A stretch of DNA of 64,000 nucleotides from Parcubacteria group bacterium (GTDB taxonomy: Bacteria; Patescibacteriota; Minisyncoccia; 2-02-FULL-40-12). Location: assembly GCA_016186395.1 (NCBI GenBank), contig JACPLU010000002.1:11470-75469 (forward strand), written 5' to 3'. The notes beneath the pieces were generated by a model. The model was not told the DNA's origin, ran no database searches, and saw only the letters and a list, made by a program, of their open reading frames with translations. The position numbers and the translations under genes are program-made. This document shows, in pieces, positions 8,327-61,558 of this stretch. Each line of letters opens with the position of its first letter. Position 1 is the stretch's first letter.

Positions 8327-8376
8327 AATTATATATATATAAACCTTTTACAAAAATCTAACCTTCACACCTTTTA

Positions 8377-8450: not shown

Positions 8451-8508
8451 AAATTTAGCTTTATTTAATCCTAAATCTTGCTTTTAAGCAAGATTTAGAG
8501 TTGCCAAA

Positions 8509-11500: not shown

Positions 11501-12621
11501 AAAACTACTGGATTTTCATGACCGGAAATCTGGGAACTATAATATGGCTGTTTACTAACATCTCCATCCGGACCGTAAAGAGCAAAACTGACTCCAACTT
11601 GTTCTGGCCAAAGTTTATCTTCAATATTTGTAAAAACCTTAATCGTACTTACTCTACTTAGTACCGTCTTGTAAACAAGAACTATTTTAATTTTTTCGTC
11701 CTTATTCGTTTGTAAACTAAATTCCTGACCGCCGCCGCAGTTTAAAAAACACTGATCGTTTTTCCAAAATTCCATATATTCATACCTGGCTTCAGTACCT
11801 GGAAACTTTTCGTCGTTCGGAGGATGGGCTTGCCAAAGACCTATCTTATATCCAGATTTATAATTATCCGGATTAGAATCCGGCCAAGAAACACTTTTTT
11901 CCTGTTCCGTAATAGTCGGTGTTATAACACGCCATGAATCTATAAAATTCCCGGCCCGTGTTTGATTATCAACACTTGCTTCAACTCGCAACTTTGCAAA
12001 AAGTGTCGGAGGCTGAACAACAAATTCTAATTCTGGTATCGCACAAATGTCAGGATCGTCATATAGATCAGTATGAGCAATAGCACACAACGAAAGTGTG
12101 TGTCTACCAGGAGAAAGATTGGCAACAGAAATAGCACAATTAGCGGAAGGAACGGAACAATCAAATGAATAAAGATACTCCTTTTCAGTACCAGATCTAT
12201 CAGCGCAAGTTCTATCTTGTCCTATCTGAATTCTGGTAAGCGGGACAACCCCGCTTCCGTTTGTCCCGTTATCAATTTTATATTGAGCTCGGTCAGTCAA
12301 CCGAGAAATCCCACCAGTTTCATTGGGCACATCAGCAACTAAAATTGCCGCATCATAACGAAAAACGGCTGGTGCTGGACAAACCTGCCCCTGATTATAA
12401 ATCCCGCCATGGGCAGTACCGTCCATAAAAAGCTGTGAGCCGTCAGTAGACTGAACCAGTTTTTCAATCTCAATTCCGGCCTTTACCTTAATAGGCCCCG
12501 ACGGTTGACTTTGGGCTTCAACATTAGAAAAAACTAAAAGCAGACCAATTAATACAATTGAAATCCCAAATGGAAAGTATAGTTTTCTTAAACCCTTGAT
12601 CATCTTACAAACTGTAGACAA
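8509..12621 (-). CDS. Giant (1370 aa) secreted multi-domain surface protein with internal duplication; putative adhesin
   Basis: Signal peptide ...FSNVEAQS; two related ~150-aa segments (SVDNQTRAGNFIDSWRVITPTITEQEKSVSWP... vs RIDSAENQSGVFKNQWHVVTPTKTESQNIVPWP...); Cys pairs and beta-rich composition. Confidence 0.5.
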   Translation of the reverse strand: MSTVCKMIKGLRKLYFPFGISIVLIGLLLVFSNVEAQSQPSGPIKVKAGIEIEKLVQSTDGSQLFMDGTAHGGIYNQGQVCPAPAVFRYDAAILVADVPNETGGISRLTDRAQYKIDNGTNGSGVVPLTRIQIGQDRTCADRSGTEKEYLYSFDCSVPSANCAISVANLSPGRHTLSLCAIAHTDLYDDPDICAIPELEFVVQPPTLFAKLRVEASVDNQTRAGNFIDSWRVITPTITEQEKSVSWPDSNPDNYKSGYKIGLWQAHPPNDEKFPGTEARYEYMEFWKNDQCFLNCGGGQEFSLQTNKDEKIKIVLVYKTVLSRVSTIKVFTNIEDKLWPEQVGVSFALYGPDGDVSKQPYYSSQISGHENPVVLNNVPAGSWVIKAQTHTNGNVHALWRINSDNGGNGGDKAILENGKVLTFNLDYLYFGRDIGWSACELSSRKATFLFRATDTSLPLKFYEQGFEKLPAQWGYGRYDGQSINRPRGLAGNISNILDTQNYKSAEASFITNTALHDGWNIFDLKGSVKHEGMTPGINDPLTNVLIGWVYGNCGVTNLNAQPLVVEGTVIKGSGTTLPNLQTSIKNLAKPFLDQSVNPEVIAGWKQEGSIEYKQGGGWISTVEFPQVAKLTNCERSAGNKCTANPSHPFSVYTQDQLVKFVLSDSVRDLAPGVYEAKVKFAGPVYLEFPNIQDTGVRYNTGDQLSRSGYGRSETEVTIRITVKNQILTCTSDKQRILQFEQVNFTANGGNGVYQWKGPLGATPPLSTSKVYSPRFFLPGFKLPTEVTSGDQKALCGVDVLPFPVPDLPILSCTDLQFQATAGGVNPSVQDLLLKIEDGPIVSQYIPHEGFSMEKLDQANWLSLVGALPLKITGNTNQTNNLVKKSAQVNITGLKAGIYDARVLVKATNVRNIQGQAVCNVILKVDEAGKTKTASLRVEARIDSAENQSGVFKNQWHVVTPTKTESQNIVPWPQSGYQDGYATGSWTIQRPADDFFPGNSKAVFNHIEIFIEHPNGRTDKLFTESDKIPSLVSNVGNNDKVKAVFVYKSISCNLTANPINIINGQFSTLAWASTGAEEGEISNNLDSRIIKINNVSSGNTIVSPDKTTKYTMLVRGNENQATCDAVINVDQDKEPNEAVLGCSSKEGSSVLNFNYQIGDPPPTVEDLYLDITGGSNEARHDQLNFQKVENASWLNLGVINKTSIIGNTNHIEQDRIVKSVIGINISNLRAGNYNAQIRATAANVQNSSAICRVNLIVEERGTKSCILNIVPSRIPQGESAELEWRLNNVSDCQASRFPSGSEWSGLVTCDKQSCQKTITPSSSHRSTVYSLSCNNGATRCSSSVSVFATPPPERPSEEFPVCEMPPIDKKNF

Positions 12622-13182: not shown

Positions 13183-14634
13183 TTATTTAAAATAGGTGTC
13201 ATAACACCATTGAACGCGTGGCGCAAAAGATCTTATTTGAGCATACGTATTTTCTGAAAATGTTTCATTTGGCTTATCAACGTCACTACAAACGTTGTGA
13301 GGCGCTGGACCACTCCATAAACATTCCCAATTCTTAGTCGGTTCATTATTGTTCGGACAAATAGAACAGCTTTCACTGCCACTTTCAGTACAGGCTGAAC
13401 TTTTTTCACAAACTGATTTTCCGCCCAAGAACCCAGCGGCAATGTCTCTAACATCTTTTGGGCCCGAACCGCAAACGGCTATTAAGTTTTGACTATTAAT
13501 CCAGGCTCCGGCTAAATTGATAATTTTTTGAGTGTTATCTATATTTGTTAGCCAACTTTCACCAATACTTTCATTTATTCCCACCAACGATTTTAATTGG
13601 TTTGCCTTAGCAACCGTAAATTGAAAGATTCCGAAACGATTTTCGTTCTCTACAAGAGGATTACCGCCGGATAAACGGGCGGCTAAAGATTTTAATAAAC
13701 TCATTGATTCAACTTGAGTCAACCCATTAATTTGAGGAATTCTTAAATTTTCGAACAATTTATTAACCTGATTTGGACTGCATTCATCTTCGATAGAGCC
13801 GCATATCGGTAAATTTGAATCCGAACATTGAGCACCCAAACAAGTTCCACATTGAAGCGGATCTTGAACTTTTACAGTACAGACCGCTGTTTGATTTTCA
13901 TTCCCTCTTTTAACTTCAGCAGTAAATTTACCTTTAGGAAGACTGACTTTTAATGGGTTGCCGTTTCGAGAAACTTTTACTGTTCCGTCTGAATTTTGTA
14001 TACTCCAATGATATTCCCCCTCTTGACCACCTTCCGCCGTTAAATCCACTTCCACTTCCGTTTGATTTGAACTTTCCAAATATTTTGTTTGATCTTTCGG
14101 CTTACAAATTAGTTCGCCAGGAACACCGCCGTCTCCTTCACCGCAATAAATTGGGAACGTATACCATTTGGCCGGCACCTCTCCAAAGTCAGAAGAAAAA
14201 CCGACATATTTTGAAACTTGAGATAAAGCTGAATTTACAATTAACCACGAACCAAGAATCAAAGCTACGCCGATACCAGTCGTTCGCAAAAGTCCAATTC
14301 CCTTAGCCACCCAGATAGTACTTCCTGAACCGAACAAAATCATTGCACCCCCTGCAACAACAAAAACTATTGTAAGAGGCGGGGTGACATCTTTCAAAAT
14401 AAAATCAGAAATATTCTGACCAAGAACAAAAAAATGACAAGTACTACATTTTTCATTTGGTGTACCTTTCTGATCCTGCCGACCACAAGGTACTAACGGT
14501 GCAGCCCAAACAAATTGAACTACAAAAGAAAATAAAATCAGCGATACAAAAAGAATCGCAAAAAATGCAATCAAATAATGATTCCTAGAATAAAATTCCT
14601 GAATCATCTTTAAATTCATTATACAAAATGCCAC
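13183..14634 (-). CDS. Membrane protein with N-terminal multi-TM module and large Cys-rich extracellular domain
   Basis: Hydrophobic segments at N-terminus; many Cys (CSTCHFF, CGEGDGG, CGTCLGAQC, CSICPNN) in C-terminal 350 aa. Confidence 0.35.
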   Translation of the reverse strand: MAFCIMNLKMIQEFYSRNHYLIAFFAILFVSLILFSFVVQFVWAAPLVPCGRQDQKGTPNEKCSTCHFFVLGQNISDFILKDVTPPLTIVFVVAGGAMILFGSGSTIWVAKGIGLLRTTGIGVALILGSWLIVNSALSQVSKYVGFSSDFGEVPAKWYTFPIYCGEGDGGVPGELICKPKDQTKYLESSNQTEVEVDLTAEGGQEGEYHWSIQNSDGTVKVSRNGNPLKVSLPKGKFTAEVKRGNENQTAVCTVKVQDPLQCGTCLGAQCSDSNLPICGSIEDECSPNQVNKLFENLRIPQINGLTQVESMSLLKSLAARLSGGNPLVENENRFGIFQFTVAKANQLKSLVGINESIGESWLTNIDNTQKIINLAGAWINSQNLIAVCGSGPKDVRDIAAGFLGGKSVCEKSSACTESGSESCSICPNNNEPTKNWECLWSGPAPHNVCSDVDKPNETFSENTYAQIRSFAPRVQWCYDTYFK

Positions 14635-18164: not shown

Positions 18165-18950
18165 TTACTGGCCTTCTACCAAATTCCTGAGATGACTAAT
18201 GTCTTGCTGGCAAATCTTGCAATCACAGCCTGTTTTCTCTATATCTATTCGTCCGCCTAGCTTATTCAATATATGGTCAATCATTTTCGTCCAATGGGTA
18301 AATTTGTCATCCATATTTTTGGCCGACAGAATTTTGGTCAAAATATCCCTGAGCTTAGGATCCCACTTCTTTAAGTCTGACAGCGTCTTCTTGTTACTGG
18401 TGTGCCAGCGACCGACTATCTCATAATACATATCAAGAATATCTCGCAGTCCCGTATGCATCACGTGATTAGCAGCAACAGGATCAGTATGTAAATGCCT
18501 TTTCACCTTTAAATCTTCATTTAGAATAACAAACCTGACCCAGTCGTGTTTGGATTTAGAATATTTTTTAGGAAGCCTTCTCTTTTTTGCGTCGGCAATA
18601 AGGTCTTTTAGTTTTCCATCTTTATCAAACAAGACTATGGACTCGGAAACAATAGGTATTCTCTTTGCTCGCTCGAGTTCCTTTTCAGTATCTTCTCTTA
18701 ATCTTTCTATAGAGTTAAAGCTTATATCAAGTTTGATCCCGTCAATTCTTATATGGTTAAGCTCAGAATGGTCTTTTCCACCAACAACAACCTTTACGTC
18801 TATGTCACTACCCTTAACAAACTCTCCTCTCACGGATGAACCAAAAATAAGGCAAGCTCTATACCTTTCGTCATCTTTAAGCTTTTTTAGAATACTAAAA
18901 ACTTTAGCAACACGACGATTAAGTTCTTTGTTGTTGGAGTATATGGACAT
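18165..18950 (-). CDS. Nucleotidyltransferase (Pol-beta superfamily, MNT-like) domain protein
   Basis: LIFGSSVRGEFVKGSDIDVKVVV = GSxxRGE...SDIDV NTase motif; last gene of a 6-gene minus-strand block. Confidence 0.55.
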   Translation of the reverse strand: MSIYSNNKELNRRVAKVFSILKKLKDDERYRACLIFGSSVRGEFVKGSDIDVKVVVGGKDHSELNHIRIDGIKLDISFNSIERLREDTEKELERAKRIPIVSESIVLFDKDGKLKDLIADAKKRRLPKKYSKSKHDWVRFVILNEDLKVKRHLHTDPVAANHVMHTGLRDILDMYYEIVGRWHTSNKKTLSDLKKWDPKLRDILTKILSAKNMDDKFTHWTKMIDHILNKLGGRIDIEKTGCDCKICQQDISHLRNLVEGQ

Positions 18951-18966
18951 AAAAGAGTTTTGACAC

Positions 18967-19482
18967 TCATTGCTTATTAAGTAAGTCGCTATAGGACTTT
19001 GATATTAAATCAGATTGAGAGACATTGAAAAGTTTCAGATATTGATTGCACTGTTCTAATAACTTTTCTTTGCCGATTTTACCCGTTTTATCTATTGCCT
19101 CAATTTCAATAAAACTTCCCAAGCCCCTGACTTGATCTATATGAAACTTAACATTTTTTATAAAGTAAATTTCTCTCTTCTTGTCTACTATCTTGAAGAC
19201 CCCAAGAGCCTTAATTAGGATGTTCTCCAAAAGACTTTTTGAAGTTGTTTTATATAGAATAACATCGGATTGCTTAGGACCTTTTTTATCCTGTCTCTGA
19301 TAGTAAATCAGATAGTTTTCTATATTGCCTTTCCTCAATTTTAGTCTACCATTAGCCACCTTGAAATAAGTATCTATTTGATGATCTGTGCCAATAAAGC
19401 GAGATCCTTTTTCTTTAAGGATTTTCCTTATTTTGTTCGGATCCTTTGATCTTGCCTTTATCTCAATATTAATATGGCTCAT
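18967..19482 (-). CDS. CYTH-domain protein (class IV adenylyl cyclase / triphosphate-tunnel metalloenzyme family)
   Basis: N-terminal NIEIKARSKD (EIEIK/ExExK CYTH signature); 171 aa, typical CYTH size. Confidence 0.5.
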   Translation of the reverse strand: MSHINIEIKARSKDPNKIRKILKEKGSRFIGTDHQIDTYFKVANGRLKLRKGNIENYLIYYQRQDKKGPKQSDVILYKTTSKSLLENILIKALGVFKIVDKKREIYFIKNVKFHIDQVRGLGSFIEIEAIDKTGKIGKEKLLEQCNQYLKLFNVSQSDLISKSYSDLLNKQ

Positions 19483-20178
19483 TTAATTTAAGACCTTATA
19501 CTCAAGCAATAAGTAGGAATTTTCTAATGGCTTAGCTTGGACCAATTCCAAAGCTTTAACCTTAAATAAATCCTCGGGGCTGTGAAGCGACTCGCCATCC
19601 ATTAAAGAGGCTGTATCCTTGCCCCCTACCATTGCAGGAGCAACAACGAGAAGCAATCTATCAATGAGACCCTCTCTGACCCAAGAGGCGTTCATTGTGC
19701 CACCCGTCTGGATAGTAATCCGATCTACGCCATAATCCTCTTTGAACCTTCTTAATACATCAGCCAAATCAATCTTGTCGTCGTATTTGAGTATCTCAAT
19801 GTTTGGAAACTCTTTCTTGAGTTCAAAAGCTGGATGTTCAGAGTTGGTAGTAATTATATAAAGCGTCTTACTCTTTTTAGCCATATAGGCCGTACCGTTT
19901 TTGTTGAGATGGGGCTTACTGTCAATGATGATAAAATTGACTGGAGTTTTTGTTGGTTCATCAGTCTTCTCATTAATGCCGATCTTCTCAAAAACTCGGC
20001 CAGAGTTTAGAGAGTGTAAATCCGTTTGTTGTTCAAGATCGTAGTATTGCTTATTGCCTTCCTTAACTCCATCAATCTTTTTGTAATCGGTATCCGTATC
20101 CATAATATCTGTATCGCCAGTAGAAATCTTGCCGTCAACGGATATTAAGAGGAAAAGTGTTGTATATGGTCTATTCAT
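19483..20178 (-). CDS. RibD C-terminal-domain / dihydrofolate-reductase-like reductase family protein
   Basis: N-term LFLLISVDGKIST and C-term LIDRLLLVVAPAMVGGKDTASL match the RibD_C pattern (SLDGKIA ... hhhPhhhGgG). Confidence 0.45.
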   Translation of the reverse strand: MNRPYTTLFLLISVDGKISTGDTDIMDTDTDYKKIDGVKEGNKQYYDLEQQTDLHSLNSGRVFEKIGINEKTDEPTKTPVNFIIIDSKPHLNKNGTAYMAKKSKTLYIITTNSEHPAFELKKEFPNIEILKYDDKIDLADVLRRFKEDYGVDRITIQTGGTMNASWVREGLIDRLLLVVAPAMVGGKDTASLMDGESLHSPEDLFKVKALELVQAKPLENSYLLLEYKVLN

Positions 20179-21256
20179 ATAAAGATTTAGTCTTTTTACA
20201 AAGTTTCGGATCTTCTAGCACGTCAGAACTGTCAATAAACTGGTCTACTGAACCTATGTTTGGTAACTTTTTAAGTTCCTCCTCGGTAATGGTTTTTCTG
20301 ATAGCATCAGCAAACCCGTCGGCGTGAATAACTAGATAAGGTCGCTCGTGGTATGAAGAAACTTCAGTAGTCATTGGTTTGGTTATGCCAAGCTCATTGT
20401 GGGCTTGAGCAATTATCTTATAGGCTTCGGCCAGATATTTCTCTCGTTCTTTCCAAGAAGAAGCAAGTAGGGTTTTGGATAAGCTAGGTTCCAGCTTAGA
20501 AGCAATGTTTAGCTTGCTAAAAGCAGTTCCAAACCATTTAGTGTAGGGATAATACTTCTGGTCCATCAGAAAGCATAGTTTCATTAATTCACGCACTATC
20601 CGAGAAGCGACTACCTGAGACCCGAGTTCATCGCCTACGTCGCCTGTGCGGCCTACAAAGGCCTCTTCTTGCGATATTCTGGTCCACTGGGCAGCTAGCA
20701 GGTAAAGCCATACTTCTTTCGGGTAGAAATTGAATTTATTCCTAATCGTTTCTAGCTCGCTGAGACCATCGTGATAGACAGCACCACTCGTTAAGGCCAG
20801 TAATCTTTGCTGAGGGAAAGTAAGCCAATCAAGATTAGTTATTTCTTGATATGGATCGAACTTAATTCGCATCTGCCATAAGGATTTTATCGTAAATATA
20901 TCAACCATATGATCTACTGGTCCCGAAGTTATGGTCTTGGATATTCTCACTCCATTTTCTTGAGACTTAGAGAAATTAGTTGAGTAGCCCATAAATTCAT
21001 ACGGGAGTTTCTCGGATAAAGTTTTGCTGATCTTTTCTTTGAGTTCAGGAAAGTCAGCTTCGGACAAGAAAATCAAAACACGAGGACCCCAATGATGATC
21101 CCGAGATATTTCAGTGTCATATCCAAGGACTTCCGAGCCCCAACCTATAAGGGCAGCCGAGTATTTTAAGTTAGGAAACTCACTATCTAGAATAGGTTTA
21201 ACAACTTCTTGATAATAGCTCCTGCTTAGTTCAATTCCTGATAAAAATTCAGCCAT
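20171..21256 (-). CDS. Hypothetical protein (possible nucleotidyltransferase-fold N-terminus)
   Basis: AALIGWGSEVLGYDTEISRDHHWGPRVLIF loosely resembles hG[GS]x9-13D NTase core; 8-nt overlap with downstream RibD_C-like gene. Confidence 0.25.
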   Translation of the reverse strand: MAEFLSGIELSRSYYQEVVKPILDSEFPNLKYSAALIGWGSEVLGYDTEISRDHHWGPRVLIFLSEADFPELKEKISKTLSEKLPYEFMGYSTNFSKSQENGVRISKTITSGPVDHMVDIFTIKSLWQMRIKFDPYQEITNLDWLTFPQQRLLALTSGAVYHDGLSELETIRNKFNFYPKEVWLYLLAAQWTRISQEEAFVGRTGDVGDELGSQVVASRIVRELMKLCFLMDQKYYPYTKWFGTAFSKLNIASKLEPSLSKTLLASSWKEREKYLAEAYKIIAQAHNELGITKPMTTEVSSYHERPYLVIHADGFADAIRKTITEEELKKLPNIGSVDQFIDSSDVLEDPKLCKKTKSLYE

Positions 21257-21286
21257 TTCTCTAGTTTATCATATTAGTAATGTATC

Positions 21287-21931
21287 CTATAGTTCTTTGA
21301 TAAATTTTATTGGGATAGCACTAAAACCAATCACATCCCTAGAACTTCTCTCATCACTGGCCCCTCGTGCGATTACCCCGACGGCTTCATCCTTGCTATT
21401 TAATAAGACTCCGCCGCTCATACCAACATAAAGTGGTCGGTCTATGACGATATGAGGCCTAAGACCAATGTCGGTATACGAGGAAACATTACCATAATAC
21501 TGCTGAGGCTCATCGCTAGGAAAGTACTGGGTAAACCCAACTGCAAGAACTTTTTCCCGAACTAAAATATCTTGTCTTGCCATTTTAATAGTAGGAAAAT
21601 ATTTATCGTCCGTCCCTTCAAGCTTCAATATCGCAAGATCTAACAAACTGATTTTCGACACTACGATAGCATTATATTTTTCAGAGCTTCCCGTCATTTT
21701 GTAGGCCACTATTTTCTCATTTAAATCAAAGACGTGAGCACAGGTAACCAGACCTATACCATCTAACATAAAAGCGGTGCCGTTAGATATACCATTGCTT
21801 TCTATCATCCAAATCGACTCGTTTATTATCTTATAATCATCGAGGGGTAGAAACGGATAGCCATTTCTGCTCAACTGATTAAACTTATTTATCAAATTTC
21901 TATATACTCTGCTTTTCTGTCCCTTAACCAT
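21287..21931 (-). CDS. Trypsin-like (S1/chymotrypsin fold) serine protease; candidate retron effector
   Basis: Triad candidates TCAHV (His), LLDLAILKL (Asp), GMSGGVLL (GxSGG Ser); overlaps the RT stop by 8 nt. Confidence 0.6.
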   Translation of the reverse strand: MVKGQKSRVYRNLINKFNQLSRNGYPFLPLDDYKIINESIWMIESNGISNGTAFMLDGIGLVTCAHVFDLNEKIVAYKMTGSSEKYNAIVVSKISLLDLAILKLEGTDDKYFPTIKMARQDILVREKVLAVGFTQYFPSDEPQQYYGNVSSYTDIGLRPHIVIDRPLYVGMSGGVLLNSKDEAVGVIARGASDERSSRDVIGFSAIPIKFIKEL

Positions 21932-22892
21932 CCTTTACAAAGTTTATTTTCCCTTCGATTATTTTAGAAAATTCAACAGATTTAATATGAGGGGCTCTTT
22001 CTTTTAATCTATTTTTAAAATAAGCCTCCTCCGCGACCCTTAAATCATATTTACGCCATTTATCTAATAGAACTCTTATTTCTCTTATGTACTCTCTTTT
22101 TATATTTGGCGTTCTATTGGTTACCAACCCCGTCACCTCCTGTCTCCTTCCAGTTCTTAATATTCGAGTTTTAGCATCATTAATAATAAATCCATTAGAG
22201 GCGATGATAGACAATATGCCTTTCCCGCATAATGGAGCACTGCCAGACTCAACTATTTCCTTATGGAAAAATGCCTGTCTTGTGGAGATAGTAATATCAT
22301 CCGCATAGCGTGTATAAACGGCATTGTACTTTTTGACTAATGCTTGAAATGCTCCGTCCATTCTAGAACATATTAGGTTTGAAATAATCGGTGAAGTGGG
22401 AGCTCCTTGAGGTAGTTGGTTATTATGGCAGCATAAGTTGGCCAGTGCTGTAGCAACTGGAGCAGGCAGGCTAAACGGTGGTTTCAAAAATAAGCCTCTA
22501 ACTCTTCCAAAATTAATTGATGGAAAGAAATCTTTTAGATCAAGGTTGAATACTATCTTTTTGCCTGAGTGGGCCGAAGCGTTAGATACAATGTTTCTAT
22601 TATTTACAAATCCTTGAACCGATGGTCTGGGCTCATAACAAATAGAGAGAATGTAATTCAACTTTCTCTGCAAAATCTTTAAAGTTGAAGTTGGAGCTAG
22701 GATGCGTCGTTCGCCTCCTGATTTTTTCTTAATAACAAACTCTTTGTAGTTTGTAGGCTTATTTTTCCTATAAACCAAATAAATAAGTGTTTTGCAATCT
22801 ATCTCTAAAATATCAGCCACATCGATAAGTGTTTTTAGATTGCGAAACTTTTCTTTAAGGACTTCGGGAGAATTTAATAAGTCTGGTCGCAT
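21924..22892 (-). CDS. Retron-type reverse transcriptase
   Basis: NASAH (NAxxH), LNLDLKDFFPSI (nearly identical to the Ec86 RT motif), YADDITIS (YADD), EVTGLVTN (retron VTG motif); 322 aa. Confidence 0.85.
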   Translation of the reverse strand: MRPDLLNSPEVLKEKFRNLKTLIDVADILEIDCKTLIYLVYRKNKPTNYKEFVIKKKSGGERRILAPTSTLKILQRKLNYILSICYEPRPSVQGFVNNRNIVSNASAHSGKKIVFNLDLKDFFPSINFGRVRGLFLKPPFSLPAPVATALANLCCHNNQLPQGAPTSPIISNLICSRMDGAFQALVKKYNAVYTRYADDITISTRQAFFHKEIVESGSAPLCGKGILSIIASNGFIINDAKTRILRTGRRQEVTGLVTNRTPNIKREYIREIRVLLDKWRKYDLRVAEEAYFKNRLKERAPHIKSVEFSKIIEGKINFVKDG

Positions 22893-26251: not shown

Positions 26252-26745
26252 TGCATACAATCTCTGAACTCAATAATAAATGGTGGTATAGGTTAATAAA
26301 AGTCGGCTACCTACTTTTGATTATGGCGGCTTGTGTAATATCTATTGCAGTTGCCTTCGAAGACGTGGGCACTTATCAGACAGATTATTTAGTAGTATGC
26401 AACTATGGGAATAAGAGTACTTTTATTGCTAATAAGGACAAGGATATTTGGAATATCCCACAGTATTATGACTATAGCGAAAGCTTGGCCAAACTTCCTG
26501 ACTCAACCAAAATACAATTGCAATCAGCTTGTGGCATATCCCAAGCAGAAATGAATGCCAAGTTTGAAAATCCTAATGATAATAAAAAGCTATTCGATTT
26601 AACCGAAACAAAAGTAAATACCACGAGCTATTGGAGTGCAATACTATGGTCTATTCTGTCCATAATTATTACCTTCGCAATCGCAGAGATAATTAGAAGG
26701 ATTTTTTACTACATTGTTTTAGGTAAAGTTAAACCTGTGAAATGA
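26251..26745 (+). CDS. Small membrane protein (2 TM), island cargo
   Basis: TM segments near both ends; translationally coupled between the excisionase-like gene and the recombinase. Confidence 0.3.
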   Translation: MHTISELNNKWWYRLIKVGYLLLIMAACVISIAVAFEDVGTYQTDYLVVCNYGNKSTFIANKDKDIWNIPQYYDYSESLAKLPDSTKIQLQSACGISQAEMNAKFENPNDNKKLFDLTETKVNTTSYWSAILWSILSIIITFAIAEIIRRIFYYIVLGKVKPVK

Positions 26746-28298
26746 AAGCAATAATTCTAGCCAGAGTTTCTAAGGAAGATCAGCTTGAAGGGCAATCAAT
26801 ACCTGCCCAGCTTGCTCGTTCTCGACAATGGTGTAAAGACAAGAAACTCGTTATCAAAAGCGAATACCAGTTTGACGAGTCCTCAACCAAAGATCAGAGA
26901 AAAAAGTTTGAGAAAGTGATTGACGAGATCCGACAATCTAAAGAACCTATTGCTCTCGTAGTAGAAACGATTGACCGACTTCAAAGAAGTTTTAAGGAGT
27001 CCGTTATGTTGGACGAGTTTAGGAAAAGCGGAAAGCTGGAAATCCATTTCCTGCGAGAAGGTCTTGTCGTTAGCGATAAATCAAATAGCTCAGAGCTATT
27101 GCGTTGGGATATGGGTGTGATGTTCGCAAGGAGCTATGTTTTACAGCTCAGTGATAATGTTAAGCGAAGCATTGAGGGCAGACTACGAAACGGCCAATGG
27201 ATTGGTCGGCCACGTATGGGTTACATCAACATAACCAAAGAGGACGGAACTCGGGATATTGTTCAAGACCCCGAGCGAGCTCATTTCATACGCAAAATCT
27301 TTGAGTATTACATCGCAGGAACTTCTTTGAACTTGCTATCCAAGAGAATGAAAAAGGAAGGGTTCAGGAGTCCTCAAAATAAGACTGTGACCGCAGGCGG
27401 TATCCATCGAATACTAATGGACTCATTCTATTACGGAATAATGGTTGTTAAGGGCAAAGAGTATCCGCACCGCTACACGCCGATTATCTCTCGTGATACT
27501 TTTCTTAAGGCTCAAGAAATCAGAACAGGCTGGAAGAAAACGCCATACAAACACAAAAGTAAACCCTACGCTCTAAAAGGGATTATTAAATGTGCTATTT
27601 GCGGTTGCACGGTTACGCCAGAGTTTAAGAAAGGCAAATACATTCTTTACGCCTGCACAAATTACAAGAAGGTCCACGAGAAGAAAACCTATATCCCCGA
27701 AGCAGACCTGCTTAAAGCCGTTTATAAGGCCTTGAAGCCGCTTGAGTTGCCTCAGAACAAGATAGACAAGCTCGTAGAGGACCTGCGGACATACAGCGAA
27801 GCTAAGACCATCTATCACGATGAGGCTATTCGGACACTAGATCGTAAGTATGCCGAGAGCCAAATCAGAATTGATAAACTTTTGGACTTACTGCTAGCCA
27901 GTAGTATTACTCAAGAGATGTATGACACGAAGTTTAAGAAAGAAAAAGAATTGCAGACTGATATTCTCATCCAAAAAGAAGATCACACCAACGCCGATAA
28001 AGAGTTTCACATCACTGCTTCTACTGTATTAAACCTAGCAAAACGAGCAACCGAGATAATTAAGAGTTCGGAACCAGAAGAAAAAAGGCAATTTATGAGC
28101 TATCTACTTCAGAACTGCCAATTAAATGGCAGAAACCTAGAGTTTACCTTACGAAATCCCTTCAACTTGATAGCTAAATACTCTAGCTATCCCACATTGC
28201 AGCCCCGACGGGATTTGAACCCGTGTTGCAGGAATGAAAATCCTGTGTCCTGGACCAGGCTAGACGACAGGGCCATAACTTTAAAAATTTTACCCTAA
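26742..28298 (+). CDS. Large serine recombinase (resolvase/invertase catalytic domain + recombinase domain + zinc ribbon)
   Basis: N-term MKAIILARVSKEDQLEGQSIPAQ (catalytic Ser in RVS); C-terminal CAICGC...YACTNYKK zinc ribbon; 518 aa; ORF reads through the opposite-strand tRNA-Glu. Confidence 0.8.
   Translation: MKAIILARVSKEDQLEGQSIPAQLARSRQWCKDKKLVIKSEYQFDESSTKDQRKKFEKVIDEIRQSKEPIALVVETIDRLQRSFKESVMLDEFRKSGKLEIHFLREGLVVSDKSNSSELLRWDMGVMFARSYVLQLSDNVKRSIEGRLRNGQWIGRPRMGYINITKEDGTRDIVQDPERAHFIRKIFEYYIAGTSLNLLSKRMKKEGFRSPQNKTVTAGGIHRILMDSFYYGIMVVKGKEYPHRYTPIISRDTFLKAQEIRTGWKKTPYKHKSKPYALKGIIKCAICGCTVTPEFKKGKYILYACTNYKKVHEKKTYIPEADLLKAVYKALKPLELPQNKIDKLVEDLRTYSEAKTIYHDEAIRTLDRKYAESQIRIDKLLDLLLASSITQEMYDTKFKKEKELQTDILIQKEDHTNADKEFHITASTVLNLAKRATEIIKSSEPEEKRQFMSYLLQNCQLNGRNLEFTLRNPFNLIAKYSSYPTLQPRRDLNPCCRNENPVSWTRLDDRAITLKILP
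28200..28274 (-). tRNA. tRNA-Glu (anticodon TTC)
   Basis: Reverse complement GGCCCTGTCGTCTAGCCTGGTCCAGGACACAGGATTTTCATTCCTGCAACACGGGTTCAAATCCCGTCGGGGCT closely parallels bacterial tRNA-Glu; anticodon loop TTTTCAT. Confidence 0.8.
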
Positions 28299-33632: not shown

Positions 33633-33875
33633 TTACTCGTTATAAAAATAAGGCATTAGTTCTGATTCAGAAATGTATTTTGATGCTTGATTAAAAATCG
33701 CCCGAAGAGTTCCTTTGTCTAACTCTTTGTGATTCGGAATTGTTAAAGTTTGATTAATTTTGTTTATAATTCTTCGAAGTTTAACATGACTACCCCTTTC
33801 AGAAATTACGGCAAAATTAAAAGACTCAAGAATCTTTACCACGTCTTCACCTGATAAGACTTTGAGTCTAGGCAT
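33633..33875 (-). CDS. hicA: HicA-family toxin (mRNA interferase) of a type II TA pair
   Basis: GSHVKLRR...LTIPNHKELDKGTLRAIFNQA matches the HicA pattern; start taken at MPRLKV (8-nt overlap with hicB). Confidence 0.65.
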   Translation of the reverse strand: MPRLKVLSGEDVVKILESFNFAVISERGSHVKLRRIINKINQTLTIPNHKELDKGTLRAIFNQASKYISESELMPYFYNE

Positions 33876-34092
33876 TAATCTGAGGAAGTTCAAAATTCAT
33901 TAAAACAGATGGATTGGGAGCAATATCAAAATCGGCAGGATTCTCACCTTCTAAATGTAGTTCTACAGCTTCTCTTATATTTTCAGCTAATTCATCAAGG
34001 GTTTTACCCTGGGTAACTATAGGCAAATCAGCTCCTTCAGCGATATAGTATTTATCACCTTTAGAAATGTGAAATTGGATTATTTTCTTCAT
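33868..34092 (-). CDS. hicB: HicB-family antitoxin
   Basis: MKKIIQFHISKGDKYYIAEGADLPIVTQGKTLDELAENIREAVELHLEG matches the HicB/UPF0150 N-terminal domain; the upstream part of the tracked ORF overlaps tRNA-Leu, so the internal Met at 34092 is used. Confidence 0.65.
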   Translation of the reverse strand: MKKIIQFHISKGDKYYIAEGADLPIVTQGKTLDELAENIREAVELHLEGENPADFDIAPNPSVLMNFELPQINA

Positions 34093-34397: not shown

Positions 34398-34970
34398 CTA
34401 TAAAGTATCATAAAGCTCCTTTTTATAAAAATAAGTGGTCACATTGAAAATTCTTTCTTTTTTTATCAATTTTAACGAGGGAGCTAAATTGGTATCTAAT
34501 GGATAGCTACAACTTATAATTACAGCCCCTGGTTTTAGTTGGGTTTCAATTTTAACCATCAACTTTTGTACAATTTCCGGAAAAAGATAAATGAAAACCA
34601 CATCGGCTTTGGTTAAGTCTGCACTCAAAAGATTTTTTCTCAAAACTTGCGCTTTATACTTTAAACCGGCAAGACGATTAAAAAACCGCGATTCCCAAAA
34701 ATACCAAGGCGAAAGTTCATAACCAATTGCTTGATTAAAACCTGATCTTACTGCTTCTCTCAAAACCCGCCCGTCTCCGCTTCCAAGATCAATTAAAATT
34801 CTTTTAGTTACTGATGTTGAATTTAAAATATCCTTTAAAACCTTTTTTGGAATAGGCACAAAACCCGATCCAATAAAACTAGAAAACGTCATTGATAAAA
34901 ACCAGATAAGAATAACAGCCAAAATAATAAACCCCAATAAATAAACTCCAAAAAAGACAAGCAAACTCAT
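34398..34970 (-). CDS. Membrane-anchored class I SAM-dependent methyltransferase
   Basis: N-terminal TM; motif I LIDLGSGDGRV. Confidence 0.45.
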   Translation of the reverse strand: MSLLVFFGVYLLGFIILAVILIWFLSMTFSSFIGSGFVPIPKKVLKDILNSTSVTKRILIDLGSGDGRVLREAVRSGFNQAIGYELSPWYFWESRFFNRLAGLKYKAQVLRKNLLSADLTKADVVFIYLFPEIVQKLMVKIETQLKPGAVIISCSYPLDTNLAPSLKLIKKERIFNVTTYFYKKELYDTL

Positions 34971-35043: not shown

Positions 35044-35445
35044 CTAAATCCTTCCAGTCGTTAGAATACTGGCAATTGTTCGTAATATTACCCCCACCCC
35101 CAGTACAATGACTGCGCCAATAATGCCGTTTTTGATTCTGGTTTTGGCAGAAGTCAGTTTTGTACTATCCGAGCCGGCGTTCATATACATAATCCCGCCC
35201 CAAATAATAAAGGTTATTGTAATTAAAACAGAAAGACTAATAAGGTATCTACCAATTGTTTCAATAATTATACTTACATCGTTAAGGGTAAATGCCCTGC
35301 CTTCGGGAATGGGAATTGTGTCAAAACAACCAATACCCAAAGGACAAAAGGCAGACGCCGAACCAGAAAACAAAAACAGCCATCCTAAACTAATTAGTAT
35401 TAATACTAATAAATAGTTCTGTTTTTTTATTTTAGCCAAAAACAT
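35044..35445 (-). CDS. TrbC/VirB2-like pilin family protein (paralog 1 of 5)
   Basis: Signal peptide, Cys after cleavage region, C-terminal two hydrophobic helices separated by GSDSTKLTSAKTRIKNG. Confidence 0.45.
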   Translation of the reverse strand: MFLAKIKKQNYLLVLILISLGWLFLFSGSASAFCPLGIGCFDTIPIPEGRAFTLNDVSIIIETIGRYLISLSVLITITFIIWGGIMYMNAGSDSTKLTSAKTRIKNGIIGAVIVLGVGVILRTIASILTTGRI

Positions 35446-35485
35446 AACCTTGAGTTTAACAAATTAATACTAAATTATATCGTAA

Positions 35486-35935
35486 TTATATCGTACCTGT
35501 AGTAAGGAAAGCCGCAATGGTTCTAAGAAGAACCCCCACTCCCAAAACAATGACTGCGCCGATAATACCGTTTTTGATTCTGGTTTTGGCACCGCCTTGC
35601 TTTTTTTCATCAGAACCAGATGCCATATACATAATCCCGCCCCAAATAATATAAACTATGGCTATGGTTACAGATAAAACAATGGCATACTGTCCAATCC
35701 TCTGAATCAAATCTACTAAAAATGTTAACTTAAAAGTTCCACCCGTAGCACCTTCTGCTCCCTGACAAGTCAAAAGACATTCAGTACGAGCGGTGCCAAC
35801 CATGTCATTACAACTAGTACAAGGCACGACGGCTCGGACACTTAAAGCCAGGCCGAAAAACAATACAAACATCAGTACGGCAACAGCTGAATAACGAACT
35901 TTAAAACGATTAATATTTTTTAATAATTTTTGCAT
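35486..35935 (-). CDS. TrbC/VirB2-like pilin family protein (paralog 2)
   Basis: Same architecture; IIWGGIMYMASGSDEKKQGGAKTRIKNGIIGAVIVLGVGVLLRTIA nearly identical to the C-terminus of paralog 1. Confidence 0.45.
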   Translation of the reverse strand: MQKLLKNINRFKVRYSAVAVLMFVLFFGLALSVRAVVPCTSCNDMVGTARTECLLTCQGAEGATGGTFKLTFLVDLIQRIGQYAIVLSVTIAIVYIIWGGIMYMASGSDEKKQGGAKTRIKNGIIGAVIVLGVGVLLRTIAAFLTTGTI

Positions 35936-36044
35936 AATAATTTTATTTATGTACTTTATTTTTTTAACACTCGACCCATCCCCTTTTGAATCAGGAGAAA
36001 TTTAAATTTTAAAACGAACTTGATCTAAATTCTAAAATTAATTT

Positions 36045-36479
36045 TTAAAAACCAAAAAACTCTCTTGTAATTACTGCCTGGGCGGTGTTTAATATCACCC
36101 CCACCCCTAAAATTATAAACGCGCCGATCACTCCTTGTTTTAATCTTCCTCTTGCTTCTTCGGATTTTTTAGGTTCTCCGCCGGCTCGCATCCACATAAT
36201 TCCGGCCCAGATTAAAAATATAACCATTATAAACCCGCTGGCATAAAGCATAAAGTTTGCCACATCTTGAATTAAATCAGCAATCTCACATAAAGTTATT
36301 GGACATCCTCCTGGTAAGGGCGCACCCGTTACAGGATCAATATCACAACTTCTTGGTGGAGTGGCAGGGCAGGTAAAAGCTAAGGCCACCCCTTTAGGTA
36401 AAGTATAAAGAATACCCGAAATAACTAAAAACCAGCTTTTCCACAAATTCTTATTTTTGTTTAAAACTCTATATCTCAT
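36045..36479 (-). CDS. TrbC/VirB2-like pilin family protein (paralog 3); tracked ORF N-terminus is read-through of an intergenic repeat
   Basis: C-terminal IWAGIMWMRAGGEPKKSEEARGRLKQGVIGAFIILGVGVIL; first 40 codons of ORF 36045..36599 lie inside repeat copy A1, so the start is taken at MRYRV. Confidence 0.4.
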   Translation of the reverse strand: MRYRVLNKNKNLWKSWFLVISGILYTLPKGVALAFTCPATPPRSCDIDPVTGAPLPGGCPITLCEIADLIQDVANFMLYASGFIMVIFLIWAGIMWMRAGGEPKKSEEARGRLKQGVIGAFIILGVGVILNTAQAVITREFFGF

Positions 36480-36499
36480 ATCAATCTTTAGTGATGGGT

Positions 36500-36645
36500 C
36501 TAGTGAATAATACTCTTTCTCTTTCTTCGCAAATCCCAGCGTGATTTGCTCAGGGGTTGAGCTCTTCGCTCTTCTTTCGCTTTCAGCGAAAGAAACCATG
36601 CCCGCGAAGGGCTCAAAACCCGTTCAAAAGCATTATTCACTAGAC
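36500..36645 (+). repeat. Intergenic modular repeat family A, copy 1
   Basis: 5' gtgaataatactctttctctttcttcgcaaatcccag ... ccatgcccgcgaagggctcaaaacccgttcaaaagcattattcac 3'; termini are inverted repeats. Confidence 0.7.
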
Positions 36646-36656
36646 TCGGTATTGAA

Positions 36657-37040
36657 TTACTGGCATCTTGTTCCAAATACTCTACCTAATGAAAAATCAT
36701 CATAACCAATAAAGGCGGCGACTGTTTCCACCAGAATAAAGGCTCCAAAAATTACTATTGCTCCCACAAAAGCCCATAAAAGTTTTTGTTTGGTTTTAGC
36801 CAGCGCATCCGCTTCTCGGCTAGTCATTGTTTGCCAGCCGTATAGTAATAATACAATAACCATAAAAAACATGGCAACACGTATTCCCCAACAGCTTAAT
36901 CTGGCAATTATATTTAATAGGTTATCAAATTCTAAATTTATTGGGGGTAGCTCTTCGTGACTACTGCCCCATGCCAAAATTGGCGCTAGAAGTGCCACAT
37001 TGATTAAGGAACCATAAATTAATCTTTTAATCCTTAACAT
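36657..37040 (-). CDS. Small membrane protein, VirB2-like paralog 4 (more divergent)
   Basis: Signal/TM at N-terminus, two C-terminal hydrophobic helices separated by TSREADALAKTKQK. Confidence 0.35.
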   Translation of the reverse strand: MLRIKRLIYGSLINVALLAPILAWGSSHEELPPINLEFDNLLNIIARLSCWGIRVAMFFMVIVLLLYGWQTMTSREADALAKTKQKLLWAFVGAIVIFGAFILVETVAAFIGYDDFSLGRVFGTRCQ

Positions 37041-37062
37041 ACAAATTTGTGTCCTCTACCAT

Positions 37063-37986
37063 CTACGACCCAAGATCCAAAATACTTCTTATAAGCGCGA
37101 TAAATCCTTTACCGATAAATACCACTGCCAAACCTATTAAAGCGTAAGTTAAAGCTTTTTTAGCTTCAGTAACTTTAGCCGGCTCGCCTTTGGCAAGCAT
37201 AAACTTAATTCCAGCGTAAATAATGATAATCGGAGCAACCACTAAAACTATATTAAAAATTGCATTAGCAATACCATTGGCCAAATCTTCGATTGATTCT
37301 GCATCAATTGGATTTGATATTCCAAAAGGGATATCTTGACCTGTTCCTCTGCCAGAAGTTTCACAGCCACTTTGGCTACAAAGAGCTGCATCGGGAAAAG
37401 AATTTGGCGCGTTGGAATCATTTGTCGTAACACACTGATTATTTTGACAAATCCATTTTTGACCTGCCTGGGCTTTAATCTGTCGCACTGCAAGTAGCTG
37501 CCACTCCGTATCACAATCACCATTACAATCCCAACCATAACTTTTCCCCTTCAATTCAGTACCCGTATCAGGCTGAATCCCTATCGCTTTTATATAGTAG
37601 TCCCTACGCGCCCCAGCTCTTTGGATAGCACAGGCATACGATGGGCATTCTTCACCAGCACTCAATTCAATTTCTACTCTTTGAGTGTCTTTTTCAATTG
37701 TAAGAGTATGGCCCAAAACTGGAATATCTTGTAATGATCCATCTGCTGTCACCAATAATTCCAATCTTTCCCCCTCGCATTCTCTATAATTAACAAGTCT
37801 TACCAACACATTAAAATGAAATGGTGCGCTATCACGAAATTGTTGATTCTGTGTGGTAGGACTCCAGTCTAGTGTTGCTGTACAAATTGCGGCATAAACA
37901 TATTCAACCAACAAAAATGAACTTAAAATAAAAAAGGCCACGATAACGAAAAATATAAACCTAAACTTCCAAATCATTTTAGACAT
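37063..37986 (-). CDS. Cys-rich extracellular-domain protein with C-terminal VirB2-like two-helix module (paralog 5, 307 aa)
   Basis: N-terminal TM, ~200-aa Cys-rich ectodomain, C-terminal IYAGIKFMLAKGEPAKVTEAKKALTYALIGLAVVFIG. Confidence 0.4.
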   Translation of the reverse strand: MSKMIWKFRFIFFVIVAFFILSSFLLVEYVYAAICTATLDWSPTTQNQQFRDSAPFHFNVLVRLVNYRECEGERLELLVTADGSLQDIPVLGHTLTIEKDTQRVEIELSAGEECPSYACAIQRAGARRDYYIKAIGIQPDTGTELKGKSYGWDCNGDCDTEWQLLAVRQIKAQAGQKWICQNNQCVTTNDSNAPNSFPDAALCSQSGCETSGRGTGQDIPFGISNPIDAESIEDLANGIANAIFNIVLVVAPIIIIYAGIKFMLAKGEPAKVTEAKKALTYALIGLAVVFIGKGFIALIRSILDLGS

Positions 37987-38105
37987 AATAAATAAAGTCT
38001 CATATCAAACGTATTAGTTAAAATTATAGCAAAAATAAGAAGAGGTTATTATACACACCCCCCTTTCGGTGAGAAGCTTGAAAAACTATCTAAGTATAGA
38101 CAATT

Positions 38106-38369
38106 TTATCTATAAATATCTTTTCGATGGGCAACATCTATCAACTGGATGATTTCGGGGTCTAGAAATTTAAAAATTACTCGCCAGTCGCGAGTAATTC
38201 TAAACGAGAAAAAACCGGTTAATCCTCCTGTAAGACTTTTGGTGTGAAGATGTGAATTAAATGGATTCCTTTGAAGAATTGCAATACATTCTGCTAATTT
38301 TTGCTTTAACTCGTTATCTAGTTTTTTCGCCGATCTAAGAAATCGACTGCCATATACAATCCTAATCAT
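38106..38369 (-). CDS. RelE/ParE-family type II toxin
   Basis: LTGGLTGFFSFRITRDWRVIFKFLDPEIIQLIDVAHRKDIYR matches the RelE/ParE C-terminal pattern. Confidence 0.65.
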   Translation of the reverse strand: MIRIVYGSRFLRSAKKLDNELKQKLAECIAILQRNPFNSHLHTKSLTGGLTGFFSFRITRDWRVIFKFLDPEIIQLIDVAHRKDIYR

Positions 38370-38586
38370 GGTCTGTCAACTGAAGTAAAAAAGAATCTTT
38401 ATCACTAAAAGTGTTTTTTACTTTCTCTTGGCTAGATTGTAATATTTTTTTTATAAAACTGGGTTTATATTGCCCTTCTTTGTCTTTACCAGCCATTCCA
38501 ATAACAAGAGAACGAAGATTTTGTATTTCTTTTTGAAGATTTTGTATTTGATTATTTAACCTAGGAATTGTTATCATTTGAGGCAT
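38362..38586 (-). CDS. Putative antitoxin partner of the RelE/ParE toxin
   Basis: 74-aa ORF overlapping the toxin start by 8 nt. Confidence 0.4.
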   Translation of the reverse strand: MPQMITIPRLNNQIQNLQKEIQNLRSLVIGMAGKDKEGQYKPSFIKKILQSSQEKVKNTFSDKDSFLLQLTDHD

Positions 38587-40514: not shown

Positions 40515-40520
40515 AAGTCT

Positions 40521-40675
40521 GGTGAATAATACTCTTTCTCTTTCTTCACAAACCCCAGCGTGGTTTGCTCAGAGATTGAACCCTTCGCTCTTCCTCTATA
40601 TGATTTAAAATCAGATAAAGGAAACCATGCCCGCTTCGGGTTCAAAACCCGTTCAAGAGCACTATTCACTAGACT
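40521..40675 (+). repeat. Intergenic modular repeat family A, copy 2
   Basis: ggtgaataatactctttctctttcttcacaaaccccagcgtggtttgctcag ... ccatgcccgcttcgggttcaaaacccgttcaagagcactattcac. Confidence 0.7.
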
Positions 40676-40739: not shown

Positions 40740-40813
40740 GTCCCCGTAGCTCAGTTGGATAGAGCGTGGGTTTGCGGAACCCAAGGCCGCGTGTTCGAAT
40801 CACGCCGGGGACA
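40740..40813 (+). tRNA. tRNA-Arg (anticodon GCG as read from loop TTGCGGA)
   Basis: GTCCCCGTAGCTCAGTTGGATAGAGCGTGGGTTTGCGGAACCCAAGGCCGCGTGTTCGAATCACGCCGGGGACA; acceptor and D-arm nearly identical to the tRNA-Arg at 8377-8450. Confidence 0.7.
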
Positions 40814-40883
40814 CTAATCAAAATCCTGCCAAATGGCGGGGTTTTGATTGCTGAAATTAAATTTCTAGGATACTCTTGAATTC

Positions 40884-43097: not shown

Positions 43098-43110
43098 TGA
43101 AAACGAGTTT

Positions 43111-43326
43111 GGCGAATAACACTCTTTCTCTTCCTTCGCAAACCCCAGGACTTCGACTGAGCTCAGTCGAATGCCCGTGGTTTGCTCAGGGGTTGAGCCC
43201 TTGCGCCACCGCTGAAGCTAAGGCGGCACGCGGTCGCTCTTACCCCCACCTGATTTAACGATCAGATGGGGGTAAACCATGCCCGCTATGGGCTCAAAAC
43301 CCGTTCAAGAGTATTATTCGCCAAGC
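43111..43326 (+). repeat. Intergenic modular repeat family A, copy 3 (with extra internal hairpin module)
   Basis: ggcgaataacactctttctcttccttcgcaaaccccagg-acttcgactgagctcagtcg... ccatgcccgctatgggctcaaaacccgttcaagagtattattcgcc. Confidence 0.7.
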
Positions 43327-43359
43327 TCAAAACACGACTTCAAATTATTTCCTCCTTTC

Positions 43360-44952: not shown

Positions 44953-45015
44953 TGTAAATAATACTCTTTCTCTTTCTTCGCAAACCCCAGCGTTCAAGAG
45001 TATTATTCGCCAAAC
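44953..45015 (+). repeat. Intergenic modular repeat family A, copy 4 (minimal: the two termini joined)
   Basis: tgtaaataatactctttctctttcttcgcaaaccccagcg|ttcaagagtattattcgcc. Confidence 0.65.
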
Positions 45016-61123: not shown

Positions 61124-61182
61124 GCTAGTTAGAAAGCATATCATAACCTCACCTTTTTGGCAAATTAACTAAAAAAAGCTTG

Positions 61183-61502: not shown

Positions 61503-61558
61503 TCATATGATGCCCCATACTAAAATTTAATGTATACTGAAATTGTACGACCCCATCT

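Follow-up and report, generated by a model that had tools for sequence, protein, structure and literature searches.

What do five neighboring genes do whose products all end in the same hydrophobic hairpin, and are they copies of one another or parts of one structure? The genes, here called pil1 to pil5, lie on the minus strand of a 64,000-nucleotide (nt) stretch of contig JACPLU010000002.1 (assembly GCA_016186395.1, positions 11,470 to 75,469) from a Parcubacteria group bacterium; we refer to this whole 64-kb stretch as the window. An original prediction, made from the sequence, had proposed a tandem array of five VirB2/TrbC-like pilin paralogs; our analysis confirms the array and supports this interpretation. 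We conclude that the array is probably the chromosomal pilin operon of a type IV secretion system (T4SS) of Patescibacteria of the Parcubacteria/Paceibacteria type. Family membership, topology, array structure, conserved gene order, and synteny are the parts of this conclusion that we show directly. The genes and their candidate promoter are as follows.

35044..35445, minus strand: pil1, a canonical short VirB2-like pilin of 133 amino acids (aa), with a predicted signal peptide and a two-helix hairpin
35486..35935, minus strand: pil2, a canonical short pilin of 149 aa
36045..36479, minus strand: pil3, a canonical short pilin of 144 aa when read from the probable ATG at 36479
36657..37040, minus strand: pil4, a divergent short pilin of 127 aa, without a cysteine-rich N-terminal region
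37063..37986, minus strand: pil5, a long pilin of 307 aa, in which a Gly/Ser linker joins the ectodomain behind the signal peptide to a pilin hairpin at the C-terminus
38048..38075, minus strand: candidate operon promoter, sigma-70-like (TTCTCA-16-TATAAT), about 60 nt 5′ of pil5; a consensus match only, at 10 of 12 positions

All five predicted open reading frames (ORFs) are present. They are consecutive and co-oriented, with intergenic gaps of 22 to 177 nt, and form a tandem array as defined by Quinonero-Coronel et al. (PMC12102498), namely, at least two pilin genes in tandem or with at most one nonpilin gene between them. The pil1 protein is identical to HYW77_00755 (P0008) of a metagenome-assembled genome (MAG) named “Parcubacteria group bacterium” at NCBI, which places its origin in Patescibacteria, and identical DNA is found in several runs of one metagenome project. 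Alignment revealed a C-terminal module of about 80 residues common to all five proteins. When a hidden Markov model (HMM) of the five modules was compared with the 534 six-frame ORFs of the window, pil1 to pil5 were retrieved at E ≤ 5e−29, and the next-best match, to residues 74 to 140 of a 483-aa protein encoded at 13183-14634, had an E value of 0.035. Because this HMM strongly retrieves only pil1 to pil5, the pattern of the shared module is real and far beyond chance.

The five modules differ widely in their similarity to one another (13 to 67% identity across the array). The common motif of the original prediction, IWGGIMYM...AKTRIKNGIIGAVIVLGVGV, is matched closely in pil1 and pil2, whose modules are 67% identical, and more loosely in pil3 (about 40%), but the modules of pil4 and pil5 are only 13 to 28% identical to those of the other members. 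Nucleotide repeats (D4 and D7) connect pil2 with pil1, and these two genes appear to have arisen by a recent duplication, after which their exposed N-termini diverged. The mechanical ORF of pil3 is longer (36045-36599, 184 aa), and its 5′ extension overlaps repeat families D1, D2, and D6; since its first 40 codons are read from a repeat element, the downstream ATG is probably the true start. The mature N-terminal regions of pil1, pil2, pil3, and pil5 contain 2, 4, 4, and 10 cysteines, respectively. All of these numbers are even, which suggests disulfide-bonded exposed segments.

Four of the five proteins score above the gathering threshold (26.6 bits) of the Pfam family PF18895 (T4SS_pilin): pil1 with 29.6 bits (E = 7e−7), pil2 with 39.4, pil3 with 38.9, and pil5 with 48.8 (E = 7e−13). 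The pil4 protein remains below it (17.0 bits, E = 0.006); the lineage profile and the orthology of its position support its assignment. All five also show weak, near-full-length matches to the NCBIfam model NF045849 (pilin-like conjugal transfer protein), with E values from 1e−3 to 8e−7 (the latter for pil4) and scores of 18 to 29 bits, under the model cutoff of 40. PF18895 is matched by all 77 pil2 homologs that we collected. Because 62 of the 77 also match PF04956 (TrbC/VirB2) at E ≤ 0.01 (best E = 1e−8), the family is tied to the VirB2/TrbC superfamily.

The predicted topology, a signal peptide followed by two transmembrane (TM) helices, is borne out by Kyte-Doolittle scans of all five proteins and by an AlphaFold2 model of pil2. 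In each protein, the scans show a hydrophobic, signal-like segment at the N-terminus and two TM-like helices near the C-terminus, with AxA-like sites after the first hydrophobic segment; in pil1, cleavage is likely after SGSASA. The pil2 model, built from 77 sequences with a mean predicted local distance difference test (pLDDT) score of 76, consists of a signal helix (residues 2 to 35) and hairpin helices at residues 70 to 105 and 110 to 145.

Other genomes indicate how the genes relate to one another. Our related set consists of 37 loci from a family-alignment scan of GTDB species representatives and 3 metagenome loci from exact-protein look-ups, drawn from MAGs of Yanofskybacteria, Paceibacterota, and other Patescibacteria. 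Pilin modules in these loci were marked with the family HMM, and each gene was assigned to a class by its best match to the window proteins. The operon has a conserved order: a fusion of a pilin module with an SLT domain, then a long pilin, then a pil4-like gene, and then canonical short pilins. Members of the first class have an N-terminal pilin hairpin, followed by immunoglobulin (Ig)-like domains and an SLT lytic-transglycosylase domain; those of the second (pil5 type) are 260 to 590 aa long and carry the module at the C-terminus. The third class (pil4 type) is the divergent short pilin, found in about 24 loci, and the fourth (pil1/2/3 type) comprises the canonical short pilins, with one to three or more per locus. 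Copy number varies only in the canonical class, and pil1 to pil3 are the amplified genes in the window. Clustering of the module identities by the unweighted pair group method with arithmetic mean separated the SLT-fusion and long-pilin classes cleanly. Because it did not separate the pil4-type modules from the canonical short ones, the pil4 class is defined only by BLAST best hits and position.

Downstream of the array, the related loci encode HSP20 (30 loci), PrsW (27 loci), and a tRNA synthetase (25 loci), oriented relative to the array as they are in the window. The array is a chromosomally conserved operon located beside HSP20-PrsW-tRNA synthetase-TsaD. Because the array positions are orthologous across genomes, we interpret the genes as encoding differentiated subunits and not an interchangeable repertoire of variants. 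The original description of five paralogs holds insofar as all five proteins carry the module, but they are not equivalent and fall into at least three conserved classes. We found no explicit description in the literature of a fixed-order, multiclass operon of this kind or of the pilin-hairpin/SLT fusion.

Two members of the array stand apart from the canonical short pilins. The ectodomain of about 200 aa that had been noted in the last gene, pil5, is real and carries its 10 cysteines between residues 35 and 208. Homologs of pil5 have only the signal peptide, linker, and module in common, and their ectodomains cannot be aligned. An exhaustive search of 1.84 billion representative proteins with the pil5 ectodomain returned two matches, a 91%-identical fragment and a weak repeat match. 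AlphaFold2 predicted beta strands in the ectodomain, but pLDDT is below 50 for residues 26 to 227, and the model is unusable. In the contig of a second strain, the pil5 protein is identical despite 13 nucleotide differences over 1.3 kb. The pil5 ectodomain is an orphan, lineage-specific domain and a candidate adhesin or host-specificity determinant. In approximately 24 related loci, the gene directly after the long pilin best matches pil4, making pil4 a candidate for a specialized or minor subunit.

The first class of the operon is represented in the window by the 483-aa protein.

13183..14634, minus strand: 483-aa protein in which a middle domain separates an N-terminal pilin-type hairpin module from a C-terminal SLT-like domain

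A related hydrophobic module had been noticed at its N-terminus, and homologs confirm it: they carry both PF18895 and PF01464, and one of them (P0083) aligns with the 483-aa protein in both the pilin and the SLT domain (E = 9e−17 and E = 1e−28). The 483-aa protein itself has no PF01464 match. At the E-S motif of the SLT domain, it has a Leu (RLSGG) in place of the catalytic Glu found in six of six homologs (QESGG, KESAC, and similar). In relatives, genes of the SLT-fusion type are located directly upstream of the long pilin; here, the gene lies 22 kb from the array. Judged from these alignments, the 483-aa protein is the conserved operon's first member, displaced in this genome and with its catalytic Glu lost; it may be an inactive, binding-only derivative. 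In relatives, the pilin-hairpin/SLT family (noted at L008 6817-7887 and L045 4053-7685) reaches more than 1,000 aa through added fn3, He_PIG, and purple-acid-phosphatase-N Ig-like domains. The gene for the 483-aa protein lies in a cluster of secreted proteins without a Pfam family, including a 1370-aa surface protein (8509-12621). Two tRNA-Arg genes, TCG (8376-8451, minus strand) and GCG (40740-40814, plus strand), form a 77%-complementary inverted pair 32 kb apart. The pilin array and the displaced SLT-fusion gene both lie between the two, although a link to the rearrangement is pure speculation.

A number of results weigh against assigning the array to a T4SS. No VirB4, VirB6, VirB3, or VirD4 was found in the 64-kb window, in which all ORFs of at least 300 aa and most ORFs of at least 100 aa were covered by Pfam scans or precomputed gene-call annotations, and no T4SS genes were found in the approximately 3 kb upstream of the window start or in the single partial gene past the last ORF. 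A survey of Walker-A motifs likewise agrees with the predicted lack of a VirB4 or VirD4 ATPase in the window: among ORFs of at least 250 aa, the only credible P-loop proteins with the motif are RecG and a ComM/Mg-chelatase-like protein, and the pattern occurs by chance in pil5 and in the 483-aa protein. In the related loci examined, no VirB4, VirB6, VirB3, or VirD4 turned up among annotated genes and large ORFs up to 10 kb from the array; a weak TrbL/VirB6-like protein is encoded in one distant locus (L048). Because no T4SS genes lie near the array, its linkage to a T4SS rests on family annotation and on the literature.

Similarity searches outside PF18895 point in the same direction. All five proteins are below the PF04956 gathering threshold of 27.9 bits (best, pil3 with 20.4 bits, E = 6e−4; others 13.8 to 18.4 bits or absent). 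An hhalign comparison of the family profile with VirB2 of Agrobacterium tumefaciens C58 was insignificant (probability 1.4%, E = 0.037), although it aligned corresponding parts, namely, the end of helix 1 and the loop. When the pil2 model was compared with the PDB by Foldseek, all matches were helical hairpins of a generic kind (ATP synthase subunit c, PE/PPE) and none reached E ≤ 0.001, so they are uninformative about pilin relatedness. A profile search of PDB sequences also yielded no pilin, only generic helical-hairpin matches. Moreover, no pilus of such a type has been visualized in any Patescibacterium, and its existence is described as a possibility only (PMC12857230). The HMM search suggested with the original prediction thus gave a positive result with PF18895 (above threshold in four of five proteins, weak in pil4) and sub-threshold scores with PF04956. 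By these profile scores, the five proteins are members of PF18895 and superfamily-level relatives of VirB2 but not demonstrable members of PF04956.

Published work makes this locus a familiar one. Searching 3,035 Patescibacteria genomes with PF18895 and PF04956, Quinonero-Coronel et al. (2025, PMC12102498) found VirB2-like pilins in 1,948 VirB4-containing assemblies, near virB4 in 1,135 of them, and reported 441 arrays of 2 to 11 pilin genes in 383 assemblies, with a mean identity of 25% and a maximum of 54%. The same survey located virB4 near dnaA in Paceibacteria and suggested that the arrays aid adaptation to different host strains. Because tandem VirB2-like arrays have already been published for Patescibacteria, the present array is a further example of a published kind. 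Like those arrays, it is tandem and co-oriented, its members are divergent in sequence and similar in structure, its size (five genes) is within the range of 2 to 11, and its identities agree with the reported mean (25%) and maximum (54 to 67%). In Southlakia epibionticum, pilins and T4SS are essential for epibiotic growth (Wang et al., PMC10633639; PMC12857230). The array also resembles the one in S. epibionticum ML1 (SEML1_0006-0019) and the “Sec-secreted array” of N. lyticus TM7x in its phylum, its PF18895 membership, and its Sec signal peptides. Unlike the ML1 array, which is inside a T4SS cluster, the array in the window and those in about 40 Paceibacteria-type loci stand as an operon of their own at a conserved housekeeping position, virB4 being absent from the 10 kb around them, and the present lineage adds, in fixed order, a long pilin with an orphan ectodomain and the pilin-module/SLT fusion. 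Essentiality is known from ML1 only.

More distant systems show which features are general and which belong to this array. With VirB2 of A. tumefaciens and TrbC of RP4 (mating-pair formation [MPF] type MPF-T), the proteins share a signal peptide, two hydrophobic helices, and a short polar or basic loop, and the short members are of similar size. They differ from VirB2 and TrbC in belonging to an organism without an outer membrane, in having no adjacent virB3 or virB4, and in showing no evidence of cyclization; the cysteine-bridged N-terminal extensions and large ectodomains are features of the present array and not of VirB2. Host-dependent Bartonella and Anaplasma phagocytophilum have likewise amplified and diversified VirB2 paralogs in tandem, with variation of the exposed surface proposed (PMC12102498). 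Those bacteria are diderm and have eukaryotic hosts, whereas the present genes fall into positionally conserved classes and not into a variant repertoire. The 80-residue two-helix module is shared with proteins of the Mycoplasma integrative and conjugative element (ICE; Mbov_0395 and MMCAP2_0565, NF045849), which belong to a T4SS of a wall-less monoderm; there, the protein is encoded by a single gene on a conjugative element, and here by a chromosomal array. The archaeal Ced and Ted DNA-import pilins, as reportedly described by Beltran and colleagues in 2023, are VirB2-like and serve a purpose other than classical conjugation, with a VirB4-type machine and without an outer membrane. These pilins come from a different domain of life than Patescibacteria.

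How could such an operon work? Polymerization, dependence on VirB4, the division into major and minor subunits, and a function in host contact would follow from VirB2 biology and from the papers cited above. The proteins would be exported through Sec, and cleavage of their signal peptides would leave a helix-loop-helix hairpin in the membrane, with the N-terminus or ectodomain outside. By analogy with VirB2, a VirB4-powered T4SS of the monoderm (MPF-FATA-like) type encoded elsewhere would then extract the hairpins and polymerize them into a pilus-like filament or conduit that touches the presumed host cell. In this scheme, pil1 to pil3 would be recently amplified canonical subunits and candidate major pilins, and pil4 would be a conserved divergent subunit. 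The cysteine-rich ectodomain of pil5 and the cysteine-bridged N-terminal segments would be displayed on the filament surface and could bind the host, and the SLT fusion represented by the 483-aa protein would be a cell-wall-remodeling (VirB1-like) member. A 2025 review regards both a pilus and a host-conduit role as open possibilities (PMC12857230), and the three functions that the original prediction had offered, namely, a conjugation-like apparatus, a competence-like apparatus, and a variable surface structure, agree with proposals in the current literature. Going further, we tentatively suggest, as a possibility and not as an expectation, that the array of the Paceibacteria/Yanofskybacteria-type lineage is a dedicated pilus operon of ancient conservation. 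Lying apart from virB4, it would encode the parts of a heteropolymeric T4SS filament of a monoderm: a shaft of amplified canonical subunits, a divergent minor subunit, pil5 as a host-recognition adhesin, and an SLT fusion that opens the wall at the assembly site, with the VirB2 hairpin serving as a general module onto which ectodomains are loaded.

The main rival explanation holds that no filament forms and that the hairpin serves as a membrane anchor or as a component of the T4SS channel (VirB3/PrgI-like) that displays cysteine-bridged peptides, the ectodomain, and the SLT domain. Monoderm T4SSs generally do not have pili (PMC12102498), Gram-positive systems normally being without one (PMC10633639), and a module fused to bulky domains at either end, as in pil5 and the 483-aa family, would be hard to pack in the manner of VirB2; the generic structure matches and the separation of the operon from virB4 also fit an anchor. 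We nonetheless consider this explanation unlikely. The best-matching families are pilins (PF18895, TrbC) and not VirB3 or PrgI, the signal peptide and basic interhelix loop are typical of VirB2, and several short subunits with minimal ectodomains are ill suited to pure surface display. If the proteins do form a filament, the five genes could still be interchangeable variants of a major pilin that serve antigenic or host-range variation, as the survey of Patescibacteria suggested (PMC12102498). Such variants would account for the low module identities, for the variable mature N-terminal regions and pil5 ectodomain, and for the apparent recent duplication of pil1 and pil2 with its diverged exposed ends. 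The constant order of orthologous positions argues instead for fixed, differentiated roles, as does the restriction of copy number changes to the canonical class. Beyond the similarity of pil1 to pil2, no silent cassettes or recombination repeats were found, and the pil5 protein is unchanged in the second strain despite the nucleotide differences. A pure variant repertoire is thus, in our estimation, more doubtful still than a membrane anchor, although variation in the exposed N-termini of pil1 to pil3 may still be relevant.

Two further explanations conflict with the pilin operon more directly and were rejected. The flanking tRNA-Leu and tRNA-Ser genes and two toxin-antitoxin pairs, together with a serine recombinase, a tyrosine integrase, and miniature inverted-repeat transposable element (MITE)-like repeats elsewhere in the window, could mark the array as cargo of an integrated mobile element (an ICE or genomic island) with tRNA genes at its borders and toxin-antitoxin systems that stabilize it. 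Yet 25 to 30 related genomes carry the array at the same chromosomal position (HSP20-PrsW-tRNA synthetase-TsaD), the toxin-antitoxin genes have no counterpart in the related loci, the GC content of the array is that of the rest of the window, and no relaxase, integrase, or VirB4 adjoins it. On the grounds of synteny, we dismissed a mobile island as very improbable. The last explanation, that the proteins are pseudopilins of a type IV pilus (T4P) or competence system, could appeal to the dependence of Patescibacteria on T4P and competence machinery (PMC11665869) and to the ComM-like gene in the window. Direct reading of the five sequences showed no G/F(M)TLIE-type cleavage motif of class III signal peptides, and the five proteins match no Pfam family of T4P pilins. 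Their hydrophobic hairpin is C-terminal, the reverse of the T4P pilin architecture with its single N-terminal hydrophobic helix. Given this architecture, we rejected a T4P or pseudopilin identity, to which we attach next to no probability.

The chromosomal pilin operon of a patescibacterial T4SS, our preferred interpretation, has the following neighbors in the window.

33633-33893, minus strand: HicA toxin (E = 2e−15)
33868-34089, minus strand: HicB-like antitoxin (weak, E = 0.004)
34398..34970, minus strand: class I (DOT1-like) methyltransferase with a membrane anchor, encoded immediately after the last pilin gene; weak Pfam matches to DOT1 and Methyltransf_23
36498..36646, no strand assigned: MITE-like intergenic repeat between pil4 and pil3, with terminal inverted repeats of 15 nt (GTGAATAATACTCTT / AAGAGCATTATTCAC)
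38106-38369, minus strand: RelE/ParE/YoeB-type toxin
38362-38586, minus strand: DUF2683 partner of the toxin

Searches confirmed the flanks that had been reported, with tRNA-Leu on the HicAB side of the array and tRNA-Ser on the RelE/ParE side, the HicB-like partner being the weak element. None of these toxin-antitoxin and tRNA flanks has a homolog in the approximately 40 related loci; because neither the HicAB nor the RelE/ParE pair has a counterpart in relatives, we regard the flanks as incidental and not part of the system. The repeat copy reported inside the array is present as listed. Other copies, all intergenic, are found at 40517-40675, 43100-43327, approximately 44954-45000, and 61171-61503. 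Their length varies by nested internal insertions (palindromic GC-rich blocks), and Rfam holds no family for the repeat. The toxin-antitoxin pairs and the MITE-like repeat appear to be genome-specific insertions. In 10 of about 40 related loci, a homolog of the methyltransferase likewise follows the last pilin gene and is oriented as it is here; the gene is a recurrent but not universal neighbor, and its product could be an enzyme that modifies pilins.

The rest of the window is ordinary chromosome, encoding PolA, PNPase, RecG, a class I tRNA synthetase, TsaD, and TsaE. Two Peptidase_M73 (camelysin/TasA-like) ORFs, an S26/SipW-like signal peptidase (4854-5399), and an LTD-domain protein (5380-7152) are grouped at 2937-7152 on the plus strand; this cluster may be a TasA-like fiber operon and, as such, a second surface-filament system in the window. 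At 18165-22892 on the minus strand, a reverse transcriptase (RVT_1) gene lies beside genes for a trypsin-like peptidase, DUF4037, RibD_C, CYTH, and a nucleotidyltransferase, which may be a reverse transcriptase-based defense island. A large serine recombinase gene (26742-28298, plus strand) overlaps tRNA-Glu (28199-28274) with its 3′ end. Among the related loci, one encodes a GyrA with an intein (L034 1210-4899).

Patescibacteria account for a large part of bacterial diversity and are apparently dependent on host cells, and a T4SS with its pilin array is essential in the one species tested. The locus described here adds no new kind of system. Comparison with related loci does show that, in Parcubacteria-type genomes, the pilin genes encode differentiated subunits, among them subunits with ectodomains and one fused to an SLT domain, and that they form an operon whose order and housekeeping position are conserved. 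The pattern favors a built structure with specialized parts over simple antigenic variation. We consider the fixed-order, multiclass operon and the fusion of a pilin hairpin with an SLT domain to be the most useful leads from this locus, and we nominate the pil5-type ectodomain as a candidate determinant of host specificity.

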